Assembly: GCA_051047955.1 (NCBI GenBank)
Contig: JBPGPT010000007.1
Location: 124,001 to 188,000, forward strand
Direction of reading: 5' to 3'
From: Cystobasidiomycetes sp. EMM_F5
Lineage: Eukaryota
DNA: 64,000 nt
Made by a program: the position numbers and the translations under genes
Notes under the pieces: generated by a model
Seen by the model: only the letters and a program-made list of their open reading frames with translations
Told to the model about the DNA's origin: nothing
The model's database searches: none
Shown: positions 43,177-62,306 of the stretch, piece by piece
Numbering within the stretch: the stretch's first letter is position 1
Layout of the letters: every line of letters begins with the position of its first letter

Positions 43177-46100
43177 ATGCTCTCGTCCTCGTCCTTATTG
43201 GGCGAGGCCTTGAAGGCCACCGCGACGGCCAGCGATGCAGCTAGCAACGACGGCTCATCATCAGGCTCAGCAGCAGGTGATGCCAAACATACGTTGCACG
43301 CACACATGAGCGCTTTCTAACGTATCCTACGCAGGCCATAATGGACCTTACCATTCCGTCATAGGGCTGGGCAGATCCTCTCGCAGTCCCTCTGCAAGTC
43401 CAGGGCTTGGCCGACGTATACCCTCCCCAAACACATACGGAGCCGTAGGCGCTTCGTCGAATCTCTCAGGCTTCTCACCTCAACATTCATACCAGCATCA
43501 CTTTTCCTCACAATCGCCTTCACTACCGACCATCCCATCGGCTTCAAACATATCATCGACCTTTGCAGATGCGAATGACGAGGCGTCTACGAGCCCAAGT
43601 ACATCTCGCACTGCCGCACTCGGCGTCGGAAGTACGCCATTCCCGATACCGTCAAAGTCTAGGTCTTCGTCACTTGCGCCTATAGGCTCTGGCAGTCCAA
43701 GAGAACAGCGGTTATACGAGAGAGGAGGCACGACGCCGTCGGCCAATGTCTACTCGACTTCAGTTGGCGCGTCTGCGACTGCTGGTTCAAGCTCACTGCT
43801 GTCGTCTAGCTTTCCGAATTCCAGTCCTTTGCTCGACCGTAGCAACCTAGGTGTCGTTGGGAACAGCAATTCGCCTACACATCGCGGAAGCGGAGCTACA
43901 TCACCCGCACCTTATCAGATAGGATCTGGCAGAGGTCTTCTCTCACGCCATCTATCGCTGTCAGGAACGCCGTTGTCTGGAGCCAGAGGAGGGGGAGCTG
44001 CAGGAGGACGCACTGCCAGTCTTGGTCGACCTCCTTCGGCCGCTTCGACGAATGCGACTTCCTCCTCGACTTCTCCCGCCATGCAACATGACACCGTGAC
44101 GTACTCACAATCTCCTGGTTTCGCCCACGAACCGCCCGTACATTCGCCAGGTTCAATTTTCTCGCAAGATGCGAGAGAAGGTCGACCTCGGACGCGATAT
44201 CCATTCGGAGAGGTAGTAAACCAGCAGTCAGGATCACCTACCGTTCAGCCACCGTCAACTCCGCTCGCATCGTCCGCCAATACTTTTGTCCCTTCTTCAG
44301 CCTCAGCTCGCATACCTTTCCAGCAAAGACCAATAGCGTCAGCACTCGCACGCACAGTCTCTTCATCAGACTATCCGTCCGGAATCGCTCTGTCAAACAT
44401 GAGTCCGTTTGTTCGAGATGTCGCCCCGCTGCCCTTCGCGCATGGCGCGAACATACGGAATACTAGTAGCATATCGTCTTTCAGCAGAGGTGTGGCTGAG
44501 TCGAATCCGAATGGATCACTCCATAACACTTCGAATACCGGCATGAGAAATCCGTTGTCAGCATCTACACCCCTGAGTGCCGACGCAACATCGAGGGACG
44601 TCGACAATAGATACGACAATACTGCAGGAGTATCTTCCGGAGATGGTGCTGTGCCGAATGTGAATCACCTTACTACCGCTGCTGGCGGCTTGGCAAACTC
44701 GTTCGGAGGTCCTAGGAGGAGGGAGAGCTTTTGGGGTGAACCCCAGACATCGAGAAGCGACTGGCCAGACAGTAGAACAGGAACCGCTCTGACGAGTCGA
44801 GCTTTGCGCGGTCACGGTTATGGCGGGATATTGGAACAGAGCGATGATGAAGAGGATGAGGATGAGCTCGCGAAACCGACGAGAAGCGGGGCGACATCCC
44901 GAAGGCATTCCGTAGCTGCGTTTACGACAACACCGCTGACGGGGGGATCGTCGGGCATAGTCTCTTCACAGCCTGGACCGCTGAGAAGTCAGTTCGGCTT
45001 TCATCTGCCAGGAGACGCTTTCAATATGACACCTGCGCGACCGAACTTTGCCAATGACAAAACTTCGACATCAACTGCTTCGCTGACAATGTCAGCCTTT
45101 TCACCTTCGGCAACGCAGCAGCGCCCGTTTGACGTCAATAGCTCCATGACAGGTGCCGGACATGGCAAAAGCATGTCCTCTGTAATATTCAAGGGTCCAG
45201 GAGATATACTTAGTGACAGCTTTGGGATGCCCATGGGTCCTAGCGCTATACTAGGAAGAGGCAGAAGCGACTCGGCCAAGTTTGATGACGATGATTTCTT
45301 GGCAACAAACCTCAGCAATGCTCTTCAGCTCAACCTGGACAAGCAGCAGCAGCAGCAGCAGCAGCAGACTTCTTCTTCTATTCGCATCCGTAATGCGACA
45401 GGAGACGACATGTCTGCAAACCACCCAGACAGTAGCCCTCGGAAAACCTTGCAGAATCAGTACCCTCCAAGCGGTAGCTACAACGGCGAAGGGGGATCTG
45501 GAACAGTCAGGAATGCAGCTACGGCTGTATCGTTGTCGCCACCACAGAATCGCGTAGTCCGGACTGCCAGCACTTCAGGTGACCCATACTCGCCTTCCGC
45601 TTCAGCCGCTCGATTTCTGGCGACCGCACAGAATGTACAACCTCCACCTTTGCCGCCTCAAACCAGCTTATCACCTAATCCGTCTAATGCAAACCCATAT
45701 CAGGCGATGCCGACAACTCCGCCTGCGGTACCTCAACAGCAACGCTTTGCTAGTCCAAACAATCAAGACTCACAGCTCGGAATGTGGCCTGCTCCGGGGT
45801 CCAATGTATTCGCGCAGCATCAACAAAGTCCGCACTTCCGCAGCGGCACCCTACCTCCGCCCCACTCCTTGCAAGACTTCTACAATGCGCCTGAGACTGC
45901 CAATCCCCCTGGGCGATCCTTCGCAAGTGACAATGTACGCTCACCGACTCAAGCCCCAAGTTTCGTCAGCCCTAGTATGATGGCAAGAGATGGCAACGTA
46001 CCGCCATCACATAACTTGCCGATGCAAATGACATCTCCACCTCCTCACATGTACATGCAACACCGCCTACCAGCAGCAGGGACAATGTTGCCGCCCTTCG

Positions 46101-47185: not shown

Positions 47186-50100
47186 TTACACGAGGAGCGC
47201 AAGTAAGGGCACCTTCCAATGCCCCAAGTTTGCAATTTTCGGCTTTGCTGGTCGCTTTAAAACCTCTGCATTTTCTTCGTTGTCTGCTTGAAGAAGCGCA
47301 GCTTCTAAGTCGTGAAGCTGTGCATCACCCAGCGCGGTCCAGACCTCGTCTATTGAGCGCTGAACCAGATCAAGGAAGGAGGTTACTCCGTCCTCTAGTT
47401 CCCTGCCTTGGTCGAGCAGATCTGGCTGATCATCCTCGTCGTTCCGAACGATTTCCTCTTGTGACAAGCGTACGTAGAGCCGCGTCAATGAGGCAGTCGA
47501 CGCTGCGAAGGTGGTTCAGCCCCCTATCACAAACAAGCAGTGCCCAATACAGGCTGACATACCGACCAACTGGCTTAGCTTTCCACCCTCGCTGACCAGT
47601 CTGGTCAGGCTGCCCAACAGATATGACTCCTCGTATACGGAGCCCTTGCCGCCACCTGCAGCCTTGTTGAGTGCGCGTCGATCTGATTTGCGGGTTTTGC
47701 CAGATTTGATAGAGGCTCGGGTAGATGCGGCAGCCTTCGTATACCTAGTAAATTGCGTTGTTGCAACTGTCGAAGCTCCGGCTTCCGTTTGAACGTCCAC
47801 ATTGTCCAGTGCATCATCACCGACGCCAGGTAGTAGCTTGCCATAGAAGGATGCTAGGGGAAAAGGTCAACGAACACAATCGCAGGCGAGGTCCGATGGT
47901 CATGCACACACCTGTATTATTCAACCGTTTTTCACGTAACTCGGCCAAGCGTGATACCTGCTTGGTGACTTGATCCTCAAGCTCATTAACCTCGTCGAGA
48001 ATTTTCTCTTTGGCGTCCAGCGATTGAGGAAGTATCAGAGAGTTGACTAAACCTGTCTGACGGTGTAATGTTGCCTAAACACCGAAAGTCTTAGCTCACG
48101 CGGAGTAAGTCAGGAAGAGATCGGGGTACCAAACGCAGCGCATCCCCGAAGTCCGCTCCATCACACAAGGCCTGGATCGCTGCAGGAATGTTTTTTGCAT
48201 AGTCACAAAGGACTTTGCTGGCTTCATTGTGACGATTTCGATTGCGCAGTCCGCCTGGATAAATCTGTAAATATACGGGTCAAGCGTTTGGCTGCGAGTC
48301 TGCACTCACTAGCAACGTTTTCGGCAAGCGTGATCATGTCTTGCTCGGCCAGCTGCACTTGGCTGGCAAGAGCGAACAGTTCGACCCAATTGAGAGCGCG
48401 CTGATACGCAATCATTGCCTTGCGAGGCTGACCAGCCATTGTGTAGGCTGTCATGCAATCAGGTCGATCAATACAGCTCCAATAACAATTCGGGGAGTCA
48501 TATTCACAGAGGGCAGCTTCCGGGCAGCGATCGTCCTGCATCAGCCAGTCACCACGTTTTTCCAGAACAACCTGAGCATAACGTCGAGGTAGCATGTCAG
48601 TCTCGCGTTACAACAGAATATTGGGCGCCCGTACCTGTAGGTGAGACGCCTGGTCCTTATACGACTGCACAGCTGCATCGTAAAGATCGTGGGCAGCTAT
48701 ATATGATAACGCCTCCTGGAAGTAATCGGCACCTGTAACAAACAGCAGGTATTAGCACCAAACACCTGCTGCCATTGCACGATGAAAGCACACATACCAG
48801 CTGCAGCCAAGTGCGTCAGGGCAGGTGCGTACTTGCGCAAATGGTCATCGATTTTAAAATGCTGATAGTGCTCCGGGTATTTTCGAAGGCCTCGCAGAAA
48901 GGGAATGTACTCCTTGGGATCCTGCAATAACACCAGACTCAGGGAAAATGTAACGGCAGCAGGTGCTTTAAGTTGGCCCACTTTCTGGCTCTGTTGCGCG
49001 ACGGCCAATACAAGCTCAAAATCATACGTGCCGAGCGCAACATCGTATAAAGTAGCGGAGTCGGCCAGGTATATGATGAAGCGGACCGCCTCCTCTGCCT
49101 TCTTAGATGATATGGCTGATACAAACTTATAAGCCATAGCTTTGTGGACCACGATCGTAAGGGTAACTTGCCTTTCACTCGTCGAATCACCTGCAGGGCC
49201 GAGACGTAGTCTGCCGGCCGTTGACATGTATGCGTCGTGATGATGGATGTCATGTAACCAAGAATATCCTTCTCCTCCAAGCACAAGCGGATTCTATGAC
49301 AGAGAGTGTTCACCTTGCTGTGTATTGAAGGGCTTACTGTCCGCCCTGTGAAATCATGGCACAGAGAGGCATACAAGGTCCTTGTGACATCGACGTCCCT
49401 GTGCGTAAATACATGTAAGCGGCGACGCAGGAATGTATACGTGTTTGAGACGGACTTGAGTCCAGATATGAACACGTTAAGGTACTCTGGGTCGGCCACA
49501 GCATCCAGAAACTTAGGCACGTCTTCTACGAAAACATCGAAATTGAAGTCGCACAGGAAATTGAGGTCGATGCGATGTCTTCGGCAGATCAGGTACGCGT
49601 CCTTGTACTGCTTTGCCTCAAGGTGTCTCTGCACGATTTGCAGGACGAGTGGCCGTGGGCATATGGTCTCCAGATTACCTCTCGGCATTTGTAAGACAAC
49701 AGACATGGAAGACGGAACCACAGTAACTATACGACTGCCTCGCTCTACGCGCCGAGCATACGTGACATCTGTCGGTTTCGCCGGTCTTGTCGCATCTTCG
49801 ACTGGGGCAGGTTTCAAGGCGTGGATATAGTCCGCAGTCTCGCTTTGCGTATCGAGTATTCCATCTCGACTGGCTAGAGTACTGATTTTTGCGAAGCGTA
49901 CCTCATGCGCCAGGGTCGTATACACGAGGAAGTCTCCTGTCAGTAGGAAGGAAGAGACATTGGCTGCAATAAGCTTCTCGGTTGTGAGAAGTGTGCCTTT
50001 TGCACTCAGGCCAAACATGAGCTTGTCACTGATACACTGCCAGCTGGGACAGAACTCGGAAAACTCTGTAATCCGGCTGTCTTCGGCGTCGAATATTGCG

Positions 50101-52230
50101 CCCGTGACAGTCTGGAGGTAAACGGCAGCATGGCTCATACATATACGGGCAAAGGAATGCGCCAAAATTCGTTTGGTGATTGGAGGGTCTTGCTCGGTTT
50201 CGGAGGGTATGGACACCGTGAAAATGCAGTCGTGGTCTCTGCGATGCGTAGACGCGAGTACAGAAAAGACATCGATCCCATCTTTCCGCGAAAGGACTAG
50301 CTGCTTGGGTGTGGAACCCTGCATTTGATGGCCGATGGAAGTCATGATTCGCCCCTGCGATGATACTTTCCCGCCCTTCTCAATGCAAAGTCGCCACACC
50401 ATTACGCTACCGTCTGAGAACAGTGCGGCAACGGAATCGTCGTCCTCGTGAAAGGCGACATGTACAGGTGTCTGACCGCCTGTATCGAGTTCGAGCGAAC
50501 ACATAGGCGGAGGCACATTTTGGTAGCGGAATGGCGTGAGCAGTAGTTTAGCTTGCAGACAAGCAATTACAGTCAAACTCTAGCGTGAGAAAGGCATGCT
50601 GGATCGCACTCACCACCATCGACAACGGCCACGAGCCCCGTGTCATTGGGACACTGTCTGTTTGACCGATATGTATCCCACATGAAGACTCGCTTTTCTA
50701 CGGATGAAGTCAAGACCAGGTACAGAGAGAGCTCTTGCTCTGCGTCCCAGACAATGTCCTGCACATTGTCACTCGATGCCGTCTGAATTGACTGTTTCAA
50801 GTACCAATGGCTGCAGTCATCTATGTCAGCGGAGAAAGTGGCATGTGGGCACTGTCAGCTCACTAATTGTTTCTGCGCCAGAGCTGTACCGTGTCTCGAA
50901 GGTCATCGTCCTCTTCCGTGCCTGTCCGTATCCATACTGCAAGGACTGTGGAATCCGAATTCCAGGCCAAGCGCATGACCGTTACCTTACCCGAATTCCG
51001 TAGGGAGAACTCGTATCTGCGAAGCCCATTCCGCTCGAAGAATACGACCTGGCTTGACTGTTCGGCGGTTGCTGCCACAATGCTCCCCGAGGGTTGCCAG
51101 GCTAGCGGACTTTCCAGCCCCGGCGTAGGCTCGGATGTTGATTGTAGGACGGCTGTCCTGGAGTAAAAGCGTAGTCGGCGTTCCCTTTTATTCGAAACTG
51201 CAAGGTCGTGGAGCGATGTGACTACAAAAAAAGCGCCATCACCTCGCCACGATATCCGGTAAGCTTCGTCTAAGCAGCGGCTGTCGCGTTGCGTAATATT
51301 TGGCAGTTGGGGAGACGTAGATGAGGAAGCAGCGGCTTGAGCGGATGAAATAGCCAAAGCTGACGCTGCAGGAAGCCCGGCAACAGCGTCACGTCCGCTT
51401 TTCCCGATAGAACCATGGAATTGTGTTTCTTGAGCTCCCCAGCCTAAATTGACTGGCTTGTCCTGACCAAACTCGACGGTCTGGAGTGCTCCTTCTGAAA
51501 GCACGTCGAAGGTCTTTGTCATTTCAACGAGATTATCTTCGCCTATCGCATCAGCTTGGTCAATCAGCTCACATCGATGGCCTAGGGGGAAACGGTAACT
51601 CACCAGTAACAAGGACGAGTAGTTCTTCGTCTGGCGACCATGCTGCAGCGTGGATCCCAGCTTCGACAGATCCGACGACATCAACCTATTTGCGTTTGAG
51701 CGGTGTCAGCGATTCAATCGCGACCAGTGTAGCGTGCATTACTCACCTTGTTTGCACTGGGATCTGTGTCTTCGTTGACGTCTACACAGACAATATCTCC
51801 ACCAGCGAGGACAATGACGAGGGTCAAATTTTCCGCAAGAAATCGAAAATCAACGATATGTCTATCGTTCAAAAACTGAAAGGGCGGTTCTGGAGGAGCT
51901 TGGAAGGATACGATAGGCTTGCGAGGATTGCTACATCAGCCGTCGTTCTTGCCCAATATCGGATACATGTCGCATGATCGATATCCTCTTGGAGTCGCTC
52001 CAAACGCTCACCGTGTTGCTTTCCCCAAGCTGGCTGTTGGCAACAAAGACCTGCACCTCGACACCGCCGTCTGGCAGAGGCCGCTCGCTGGCCAGATAGA
52101 GGGTCTCCTTATCGTCCGGATGCGATAGCGACGTCGCTTCGTTGCGTACGGCCAGCGAAGTGTAGCGAGCTGCAGCCTTCTTGCCGTGGACCTTGCCAGC
52201 CTGGCACGTTAGAAGGGTCAGCGACCTCAT
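47186..52230 (-). CDS. ELP1: Elongator complex subunit 1 (Elp1/Iki3), many exons
   Basis: Motifs GWGAQETQFHGS, ISWRGDGAFF, FFERNGLRR, RRVERGS, LQMPRGNLETICPR, QK|DPKEYIPFL, KGSVYEESYL. Confidence 0.96.
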
Positions 52231-59208: not shown

Positions 59209-60198
59209 ATGGGTGGTCAGTAGTGCTGTCGACATTGTCTACGCTGTCAGGATGCTGATGCTCCTCTTTCCTCGCTTTTCCTGGCCGCAATTCCGACACA
59301 TCTATGCACACCATGACCGACACATATATGCTATCATTGCTGAATGATGACCATGCTCAATATTATGCTACAAACATGTCTCGAATTATGCAGCCTACGC
59401 TTATCTCGCCGAGCTCTCGAAGCGAAAGCAGAGCGATGTTTCCCAATTCCTGCTCCGAGTACGTGAAGGAATATAGCAGCAAGCTACAAGCAAAGGACAA
59501 ACAAGCTTATACGATTCATCTTTCTCTGTGATTGCCTAAACAGACCCGATGCTGGGAGTACAGGCAATTGAATGTCATTCACCGCTGCTCTCGCCCTTCG
59601 CGACCCGACAAGGCTCGCAGACTGGGCTACAAGGCAAAGCAGGGTTACGTCGTATACCGTGTCCGTGTACGCCGCGGTAACAGAAAGCGACAGGTGGCAA
59701 AGGGTGCTACTTTCGGCAAGCCGACCAACCAGGGTGTAAACCAACTCAAATTCCAAAGATCCCTGAGATCAGTCGCGGAAGAGCGTGTAGCGCGAAGATG
59801 CGGTGGTCTACGTGTACTGAACGTGAGTCATCATCGCTTGACACCGTTGATACATCTTTGCTGATGACACAATGTTTTCAGTCCTACTGGATCAATCAGG
59901 ACGGAGTGTACAAGTATTACGAAGTCATCCTCGTCGACCCCTCCCACAAGGCTATCCGTCGTGATGCCCGCATCAACTGGATTGCCAACCCCGTTCACAA
60001 GCGTCGCGAAATTCGCGGTCTCACCTCTGCCGGCAAGCAGTCTCGCGGCCTCGGAAAGGGACACAAGTACAATCATGGTCCGCAATACGCTACGTGGAAG
60101 AAGCATAACCTCTTGAGTTTGAAAAGGAAAGGGGAAAGAGCGTTACCTCTTCATCGGGCTAGACTAACGCTTGATTACCTTTCTGCAGATACCGATAG
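59209..60198 (+). CDS. RPL15: 60S ribosomal protein L15 (eL15), 5 exons; last intron apparently GA-AG
   Basis: [33 protein letters not shown]...[15 protein letters not shown]...LRVLN|SYWINQD...[10 protein letters not shown]. Confidence 0.97.
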
Positions 60199-60519
60199 CC
60201 GCGCAGACTTTGCGTCGGCTTGTATCTTCGGAAACAAGCTATGGCGACCTTGCGTCAGTTGTACTATCAAGGAGCGCGACGTCGGCTTTGTCATGTCATG
60301 GAGCATCCTTTCGGTCGCTTTTGCCAATCAATGCAGTGTTCGAAAACTTAAGATTTTAGGCGACCTTGTTATGCGTCACTTCAGTGACCACAAGGCGAGC
60401 TTCTGACCGGGAGATCATCTAAATCGCAGCACTTTACTTTGCATACATTGCTAATCGGCATGCAACGCTTTAGATACACAGTACTACTGCACTGACGTTC
60501 AACACGTGCCGTGCGATCA

Positions 60520-61323
60520 CTACTCTTCTTCTGTCCACTGATTAGCCAACTCTCCTATTTTCGGTAAATGGTATCTTTGCAGAGTGTCTCCACTTCGATA
60601 TGCTTGAAAACTATGATAAACAGAGTTATATCAGACGGACTTGAGTATGCAAAATCAGATATTAAACATACGCAAGATGACCATACAGCGCTGCATCGAC
60701 TAGAAAGAGTAGCCAGCTGAAGAAGCTTGACCAGAGGAGGAGAATGTGCAGGATGGCTAGTCCTGCACCGAGTAACAGGGACTGCCAGGCGTGAAAACGG
60801 CTACACAGAAGCCATTAGAGGATGTGTGAATTGTGTAACATCGCGTAGCTTACACGTAGTCATTCTTCGTTTCCAGTATGAGTAAAACTATCGCCAGTAT
60901 CGGGCCAGCAATGTACGCTGCTGCAGCTTCTATATCGATCCTCCAGCCATACGTTGTATCGTATGCATCGTGAGTGTTGCTCTCATTCTGGTATGCTCCT
61001 CCTCTGCCGCTACCCACTTCTCCACCATTCTCTACGTCCCACAGCACATCCCCCTGTGCAGCACTACTGCCCTGCCGCGACGAAGACGAGGCAGACCCTC
61101 CTGCATTCCCGCTGAATGAGTTGAGGTCTGATGGCCGTGCACCAGATTGATATGATCCGACGCTAAACCACGGAGACTTGGGCCGTGTCGCTGTGTTCGA
61201 TGACGATGTGGATGGCTTGCTCGTGGAACTTGAACCTGGTAAAAGACGCGAAGAGCTGCCTCGAGGGGACGATGGAGGGGATTGGTAGGGTGCGAAATTG
61301 AGTGAGGGAGACGGGCGAGCCAT
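60520..61323 (-). CDS. Small membrane protein, UPF0132/Tic20-like, 3 exons
   Basis: Motifs RIDIEAAAAYIAGP, LLILETKNDYV|RFHAWQSLLL, AYRSGDTLQRYHLPKIGELANQWTEEE*. Confidence 0.75.
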
Positions 61324-61578
61324 TGTTGGAGTCTGTATGGCTCTTTACGCGAGGTTGCGTTGTCGATAGTTGTCGCCGTGATTACCCAGCAAATACCCAA
61401 CAGCGGTGCAAGCCTTTTAGATGGAGTGATGTTCAGATGCTCAGACGGCGTAATCGCACATAGTCATGACTCAATCATGGTGAGTTGTTGGAAGGATACT
61501 TGTTGACGAGCAATCGCATCGTCGCTTTTACTGCTTCCAGTTCGTTACCGACTGGCATTATCCTGCTCCGCTCGTACA

Positions 61579-62306
61579 ATGTCATCTACATGCACAGACT
61601 GCGAGAAAGATGACGCTCCTCAGGCTGCGCCGGCAGTGAATCATGTCGAGGAGAATGTTATGGATCCAGCTACATTTACAAAGCCAGATCTGAGCAAGGA
61701 TGTGAGGGTAGTCATCGAGTACTGCAACAGATGGTGAGTAGATGCAGCCTCGATGGAAAAGCCAGGCTGATGCTCGTGGTGGTTTGCGAATTGTGTTGTA
61801 CTGACAGTCGATGGTAAGGTTGTGTCCGCTTGCAGACGGCATGCTCAATCCTGACACTCCAATCGTCAAAGGAACGCTCGGGCTACGTGGTCAGTCTTAT
61901 CGCTGCTTTCGACTTTAGCTGTCACTACTGACTTCACATTTAAAAGGATACAGACCGAACTGCTCAATACATTCTCGCCGAGTGGGGAATCCGAAAAGAC
62001 ATCAGACGCATCCCCATCTACCATCAGTGCAGTCACAATAATGCCCCGCTCAGATCCGGCAACGGCAGGGCGATTCCGGATATGGCTGTACAAGGCGAAT
62101 GAGCCAAAGCCAGTCCTGATACACGATAGAAAGATTGAAGGTGGCTTTGCGGAAACTAAGATTATCGTGAGGGATTGAACTACTCGCTTTGATTGCAAAT
62201 ATTGATATACAGCGTGCAGAAACAGAAAATCAGAGAGATTATTGACCCTTCCAGGGGGCTCGGGCACTCTGACAAGCCTGGCAAGTCAAGTATCCCATCG
62301 TCTTGA
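61579..62306 (+). CDS. Rdx-family (SelT/SelW/SelH-like) thioredoxin-fold protein, Cys form; exons 61579-61733, 61808-61813, 61872-61889, 61947-62166, 62220-62306
   Basis: Spliced product reads VVIEYCNRCRWNARATWIQTELLNTF...AGRFRIW...IHDRKIEGGFAETKIIKQKIREIIDPSRGLGHSD, matching the Rdx family pattern. Not present in the ORF track. Confidence 0.88.

Follow-up and report, generated by a model that had tools for sequence, protein, structure and literature searches.

A probable GA-AG terminal intron in the eL15 (RPL15) gene of a basidiomycete-like fungus

The eL15 gene and its surroundings

A complete gene for the ribosomal protein eL15 (RPL15), with five exons, occupies positions 59209-60198 on the forward strand of the window (the whole stretch of 64,000 nucleotides of DNA that was analysed), as determined by reading the sequence and splicing it by coordinates. 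Exon 1 (59209..59215) consists of ATG GGT G, and the product starts with MGAYAY..., like that of its closest relative, the metagenomic locus L001. Introns 1 (59216..59393, 178 nt, GTG|gtcagt ... atgcag), 2 (59459..59543, 85 nt, CGA|gtacgt ... aaacag) and 3 (59823..59881, 59 nt, AAC|gtgagt ... ttttcag) are ordinary GT-AG introns, all with a cag end. They delimit exon 2 (59394..59458), which was placed by computed splicing, exon 3 (59544..59822) and exon 4 (59882..60126), the latter ending in ...AAA AG. The frames of exons 3 and 4 both show significant similarity to the Pfam profile of the family (PF00827, Ribosomal_L15e), exon 3 over profile positions 23-116 of 191 (E 1.2e-40) and exon 4 over positions 113-183 (E 3.4e-32). 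The gene would be completed by a putative GA-AG intron 4 (60127..60188, 62 nt, AAG|gaaagg ... ctgcag) and by a terminal micro-exon, A TAC CGA TAG (60189..60198), that completes an Arg codon and then encodes Tyr, Arg and the stop. All these features are on the forward strand.

The start codon of the gene is intact, and the frame contains neither frameshifts nor stops. In an alignment of 34 sequences (the spliced eL15, 32 complete homologues and the L001 product), the protein spliced at the GA site deviates in only two of the 117 columns with conservation of 90% or more, with Val replaced by Thr in LLRVR and Thr by Leu in HNT, and this number lies inside the spread of the aligned sequences. Because the departures fall in the normal range, the gene appears to be constrained rather than decaying. 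No second eL15 copy was detected in the 64-kb window. The best explanation of the locus is a functional eL15 gene of a basidiomycete-like fungus that looks single-copy within the window searched. The alternative that the locus is a recently disabled copy, with a canonical RPL15 elsewhere doing the work, finds some justification in the fact that mutation of position +2 of a donor is a classic inactivating lesion. However, the intact start codon and three intact GT-AG introns, the unbroken frame, the near-complete agreement with the conserved columns and the lack of another copy in the window make a pseudogene extremely improbable.

The nearest named homologues over exon 4 all belong to Basidiomycota, with 81-87% identity. 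The exon of the ELP1 gene on the reverse strand of the window (48942-50579) likewise has its best matches exclusively in Basidiomycota, with Microbotryomycetes on top, at 31-36% identity. Given these best values for ELP1 and the maximum of 87% for exon 4 of eL15, the lineage seems to have no close relative in the collections searched. A scan of contigs from prokaryote genomes yielded three loci, of which one is a distant match and two are short fragments resembling eukaryotic sequence. The two fragments, L081 and L082 (207 and 331 nt), come from actinobacterial genome records, are of the eukaryotic type and share 63-78% identity with the eL15 of the window; most likely, they reflect eukaryotic contamination of the actinobacterial assemblies.

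Downstream of eL15, a convergent neighbour on the reverse strand (open reading frame 60853-61344) seems to end with a 53-nt GT-AG intron (60801-60853, CGT|GTAAGC ... gtgtag). Given the position of this terminal intron, the 3' ends of the two genes lie a few hundred bases apart. Further along, the open reading frame at 61855-62175 on the forward strand matches the thioredoxin-like Rdx family (PF10262, E 7.9e-07) and overlaps an open reading frame on the opposite strand (61869-62285). Scans of the window with Rfam and for tRNA genes produced no matches, and therefore no U1 or snoRNA was found in the window.

The terminal junction and the conserved C-terminus

The frame of exon 4 reads ...CAT AAC CTC TTG AGT TTG AAA AG|GAAAGG, with G60127 and A60128 at the start of the putative intron. 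The non-canonical donor GAAAGG (60127..60132) matches the consensus AG|GTAAGT at positions -2, -1, +1, +3, +4 and +5; it deviates at +2, where A stands (60128), and at +6, where G replaces T. Downstream lie the branch motif gACTAAC (60162..60168), whose branch A at 60167 is 21 nt away from the end of the intron, and a pyrimidine-rich tract with the CAG acceptor (60170..60188, cag at 60186-60188). Direct reading of the sequence bears out the description of all these elements in an earlier sequence-only reading of the locus, namely, the frame up to ...LSLK-AG|gaaagg, gactaac, the cag and A TAC CGA TAG, along with the match of the donor to the consensus, to which the deviation at +6 has to be added. 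Computed splicing also reproduces the protein end proposed there: removal of the 62 nt from 60127 to 60188 gives a 606-nt coding sequence for a 201-aa protein that ends in ...LSLKRYR*. The same junction can be written one base leftward as GG...CA, with an identical mRNA. A different terminal exon was considered and rejected, since Tyr-Arg-stop occurs only once between 60100 and 61500 in any frame, at 60190.

Eukaryotic eL15 proteins are about 201-204 aa long and carry x-R-Y-R at the C-terminus. The RYR motif is contained in 106 of 120 homologues and, in 102, x-RYR stands at the C-terminal end, followed by no more than one residue. The spacing N-x-L-x-L-x-RYR is exact in 104 homologues, and an insertion of 2-9 residues between L-x-L-x and RYR was found in none of these 104. 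Exon 4 aligns to residues 118-198 of the solved 201-aa chains of Schizosaccharomyces pombe eL15 (9axt_BZ and 8esq_N), with residue 81 of the exon at residue 198, so that exactly three residues are missing. The conserved C-terminus that includes these three residues is reproduced solely by the junction 60126^60189, and full-length colinearity with the family is attained only when this GA junction is used. Thus, the 5' end of intron 4 is set by the protein family. When both strands of the window are counted (128,000 positions), the motif AGGNAAG occurs 31 times, or about 2.4e-4 per position; its presence at the sole position and in the sole codon phase that restore the conserved protein end is, judging from the sequence, more than chance.

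The position of intron 4 was compared with those in metagenomic relatives. A scan for eL15 relatives recovered 80 loci, the best of which is L001, a cDNA-like sequence from another species with 86% identity over the part of exon 4 used for the search. In 62 of the 80 loci, no intron separates the RYR end from the exon before it. In 15 loci, a GT intron lies directly after His-Asn-(Thr), five codons upstream of the position of intron 4, and in two more (L063 and L066), a GT intron follows Leu-Ser. In none of the 80 loci is the Arg codon that precedes Tyr-Arg-stop interrupted by an intron, so the position of intron 4 appears to be lineage-specific within this sample. All 17 introns in this part of the gene start with GT, and no non-canonical donors were found among them. 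The comparison of orthologous introns that the sequence-only reading had envisaged therefore lends no support to a conserved GA donor, given that none of the 17 introns sits at the position of intron 4.

L001 contains an uninterrupted, full-length open reading frame, which suggests that it is probably a transcript; its protein is 88.6% identical to the eL15 of the window, and the nucleotide identity over exon 4 is about 79%. The coding sequence of L001 ends with ...CGC AGA TAC CGA TAG, that is, with the same AG+ATACCGATAG as at the proposed junction, and its last 10 nt are identical to the micro-exon. Such an end is compatible with a shared intron, not proof of one. Among the other relatives, the metatranscriptome-like contig L006 (positions 364-700) agrees with the eL15 of L004 and L011 as far as ...LSLR and then continues with an unrelated KHTSKQ... 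instead of RYR-stop; either a chimeric contig or an aberrant transcript may account for this switch.

The GA donor and its competitors

The strengths of the candidate donors were compared by predicting their duplexes with the conserved 5' end of U1 snRNA, represented by an 11-nt motif. The GA site at 60127 forms a predicted duplex of -5.3 kcal/mol, against -6.6, -3.2 and -5.8 kcal/mol for the GT donors of introns 1, 2 and 3, respectively, -2.5 kcal/mol for the GT at 60117 and +0.1 kcal/mol for a GT at 60142. Hence the GA site is inside the range of the gene's own GT donors, and it ranks among the top 7.3% of G sites drawn at random from the window.

As a further reference, we used 34 putative introns of the window (49-178 nt, median 58.5 nt) that were picked by eye from joins of open reading frames with canonical signals; because the picks leaned on such signals, the donor statistics of this set are partly circular. 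Intron 4, at 62 nt, is close to the median length, and the distance of 21 nt between its branch A and its acceptor falls within the range of 6-38 nt in the 34 introns. Two putative introns in other genes of the window, at 43277-43334 on the forward strand (a PSP1-domain gene) and at 27673-27624 on the reverse strand (a gamma-glutamyltranspeptidase gene), lack the G at donor position +5 (GTGATG and GTATAT, respectively) but show good branch and acceptor signals. Surveys that joined open reading frames by introns with any donor dinucleotide had a background at the level of the signal (for example, 152 for GT, 131 for GA, 144 for GC and 122 for GG), and at this low sensitivity no second GA-AG case was recognised in the window. 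The coding signal obtained by scoring codon usage was too weak to place the exon boundaries. No further copies of intron 4, of the kind expected of an introner-like family, were found in the window.

Two GT dinucleotides compete with the GA site. The one at 60117 (GTTTGA, 60117..60122, forward strand) was presented in the sequence-only reading as the only one nearby. Its use would remove a 72-nt intron, shift the frame and produce a 267-aa protein, and retention of intron 4 would produce 291 aa; both products run to the same stop at 60404-60406, as that reading had anticipated, and thus have no early stop but added tails of 66 to 90 residues. Joining of this donor to the AG at 60161-60162 was rejected because the product would be cut to ...HNLLN* and the intron would have no branch site. 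The claim that no other GT is close by is mistaken: the GT at 60142-60143 (AGC|GTTACC, donor 60142..60147, forward strand) defines a 47-nt intron that uses the same branch site and acceptor at 60188 and keeps the frame.

This canonical, in-frame GT-AG alternative counts against use of the GA site and calls for a comparison of the two. If the GA is real but unused, splicing from 60142 would yield a 206-aa eL15 with KGERA before the terminal Tyr-Arg, such that Tyr-Arg-stop is retained, and the length of the intron is only 2 nt below that of the shortest putative intron of the window (49 nt). However, the five added residues fall between L-x-L-x and RYR, where none of the 104 homologues with the exact spacing has an insertion, and they turn the Arg at position -3 into Ala. 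The U1 duplex of this donor is weaker than those of all 34 putative introns, of which the weakest is at -0.4 kcal/mol, and neither its T at +3 nor its C at +5 is present in any of the 34, a soft argument in a set chosen in part by donor consensus. By these partly circular measures, the donor at 60142 is the worst and its intron the shortest in comparison with the set, whereas the GA intron is typical except for +2. We therefore consider splicing from 60142 unlikely.

Another way to dispense with a GA donor is to suppose that A60128 is an assembly or sequencing error, or else a private, recent mutation of the sequenced strain, and that the true donor is AAG|GTAAGG, in an ordinary GT-AG intron. 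This explanation draws strength from the fact that a single T for A would create a near-consensus donor exactly here, and the site lies within a purine-rich, low-complexity run (AAAAGGAAAGGGGAAAGAG). Against an error, the 15 open frames of at least 300 codons in the window, 21,891 nt in total, give no sign of a noisy assembly; with that many long frames, the assembly does not look riddled with indels. Moreover, an inferred comparison of priors suggests that a substitution error at one given base of a finished assembly is rarer than GA-AG introns are in a basidiomycete (0.038%, as published for Ganoderma lingzhi). On balance, we give an error or private mutation a small, although appreciable, chance of being the correct explanation.

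With the competitors thus weighed, intron 4 (60127-60188) is probably a U2-type GA-AG intron. The rest of its 5' splice site fits the consensus and is predicted to pair with U1, and the branch site, pyrimidine tract and AG acceptor are at normal distances. The U12 type was rejected: U12 introns have an RTATCCTT-type donor and a TCCTTAAC-like branch site near the acceptor, and these motifs are absent from intron 4, with its donor GAAAGGGG and branch ACTAAC. GA60127 is the best-supported candidate for the 5' splice site of this intron, and we infer that A60128 is genuine and that the spliceosome uses the GA site. The view of the sequence-only reading that an essential gene contains a GA-donor intron holds to the extent that the protein end and the U1 pairing single out this site; that reading overlooked the canonical in-frame rival at 60142.

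Splicing at the GA site could proceed as follows. U1 would recognise AAG|GAAAGG through pairing at -2, -1, +1, +3, +4 and +5, with the single A at +2 tolerated. The optimal ACTAAC branch site, which is 40 nt from the donor and 21 nt from the acceptor, would act with the pyrimidine tract and the CAG acceptor to help the intron through both catalytic steps. Thus, the weak +2 position would be offset by otherwise full complementarity to U1 and by the optimal branch site, and the joining of AAA AG to A TAC CGA TAG would produce the canonical ending KRYR of a 201-aa eL15. GA 5' splice sites are reported to be poor in the second catalytic step, and the title of the 2003 work of Brackenridge and coworkers, cited in PMC7072748, contains the wording 'dead-end'. 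Given this description, a GA donor is an odd feature of a highly expressed, essential gene.

Known GA-AG introns, regulated splicing and gene annotation

A natural GA 5' splice site that is efficiently used is reportedly present in human FGFR1-3 (Brackenridge, Wilkie and Screaton, EMBO J 22:1620, 2003). Like that site, the GA donor of eL15 retains the consensus at other positions and has a GT a few nucleotides upstream. In FGFR1-3, the GT is 6 nt upstream, and the GA site is said to require it, according to a citing passage in PMC7072748, whereas the GT of eL15 is separated from the GA by 10 nt, lies out of frame and pairs weakly with U1.

GA-AG introns are indeed rare, as the sequence-only reading stated, and have also been catalogued in fungi already (in the parts of PMC11590231 and PMC3577648 consulted here). 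In the basidiomycete Ganoderma lingzhi, 35 GA-AG introns (0.038%) make up the commonest donor variant after GC, with 1,706 GC-AG introns (1.85%) (PMC11590231, Table 1). In Fusarium graminearum, GA-AG is among the 0.31% of 'other' sites in 2,604 introns (PMC3577648, in the part covered). As in these cases, intron 4 is a short fungal intron, putatively of the U2 type, that would run from GA to AG; unlike them, it is predicted from the genomic sequence, whereas the cases in G. lingzhi and F. graminearum rest on transcript data. The passages of the two papers that were covered place none of these introns in a ribosomal protein gene (PMC11590231, PMC3577648), and no fungal ribosomal protein gene with such an intron was found described in the literature searched, which was judged mostly by titles. 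The GC-AG introns resemble intron 4 in that a single departure at +2 is compensated by an otherwise strong consensus; in contrast to GA, GC fits U1 by wobble and is about 50 times commoner (1.85% versus 0.038% in the table for G. lingzhi, PMC11590231).

In the GA-AG-rich animals Eurytemora affinis and Oikopleura dioica, AG precedes the GA donor and A follows it, a context shared by AG|GAA at intron 4 of eL15; in these animals, GA-AG introns are found genome-wide (3.2% of the supported sites in one species), and a variant U1 has been proposed (PMC7072748, in the part consulted). The same cross-kingdom survey, in that part, gives RNA-seq support for only 19-23% of the annotated GA-AG sites (PMC7072748). 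Intron 4 is a probable further case of this rare class. Catalogues of GA-AG introns already exist for fungi, animals and plants alike, so it would involve no biology of a new kind.

The sequence-only reading also raised the possibility of a regulated splice switch. In such a switch, the choice among GA60127, GT60117 and retention would tune the output of eL15, much as some yeast ribosomal protein genes control their own expression. Three possible donors are indeed present within 26 nt; the donor GGAAAGG (60126-60132) pairs with CCUUUCU of the pyrimidine tract (60178-60184) in the predicted fold; and the reported dependence of the FGFR GA site on its neighbouring GT offers a precedent. However, the fold of 60105-60200 is no more stable than those of shuffled sequences (-21.5 versus -19.97 +/- 3.44 kcal/mol, z -0.44), the pairing of GT60117 with U1 is weak, and neither the 267-aa nor the 291-aa product has the early stop of the usual unproductive isoform. 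In the yeast genes RPL30, RPS14B and RPL22B, autoregulation through splicing requires the protein to bind a defined RNA structure. Like them, the eL15 gene encodes a ribosomal protein and has a 5' splice site that is weak or unusual; unlike them, it has no significant predicted structure and no alternative isoforms of the unproductive, early-stop kind. With neither a stable structure nor an unproductive isoform among the findings, the idea of a switch gains no support from the analysis, and we regard it as very improbable. A more elaborate scenario, in which intron 4 is a young, lineage-specific intron that is spliced efficiently from the GA, with the choice among GA60127, GT60117 and GT60142 acting as a valve on eL15 output, strikes us as quite doubtful.

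If the GA-AG assignment is correct, intron 4 would provide a clean example, anchored by the conserved protein end, of a GA donor that is tolerated even though inefficient splicing of the gene ought to carry a cost, and it would be useful for asking which compensating features, such as extended U1 pairing or an optimal branch site, make fungal GA donors workable. The interest would be greater only if transcripts show efficient use of the GA at the apparently lineage-specific intron position.

A correct assignment would also mean that gene predictors limited to GT and GC donors mis-annotate the C-terminus of an essential protein, with 206, 267 or 291 aa in place of 201. Public eL15 models already expose such weakness of prediction at a nearby terminal intron: the 14 of the 120 homologues that lack the RYR motif are gene models with wrong ends that run past an intron or break off there (P0018, P0036, P0053, P0059, P0064-P0066, P0070, P0076, P0077, P0082, P0085, P0093 and P0107). 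Annotation commonly goes astray at the small last exon of fungal RPL15. Most of the 14 wrong models read through a GT intron after His-Asn-Thr ('HNTYV...'), and several others, 492-1187 aa in length, are fused to neighbouring genes.
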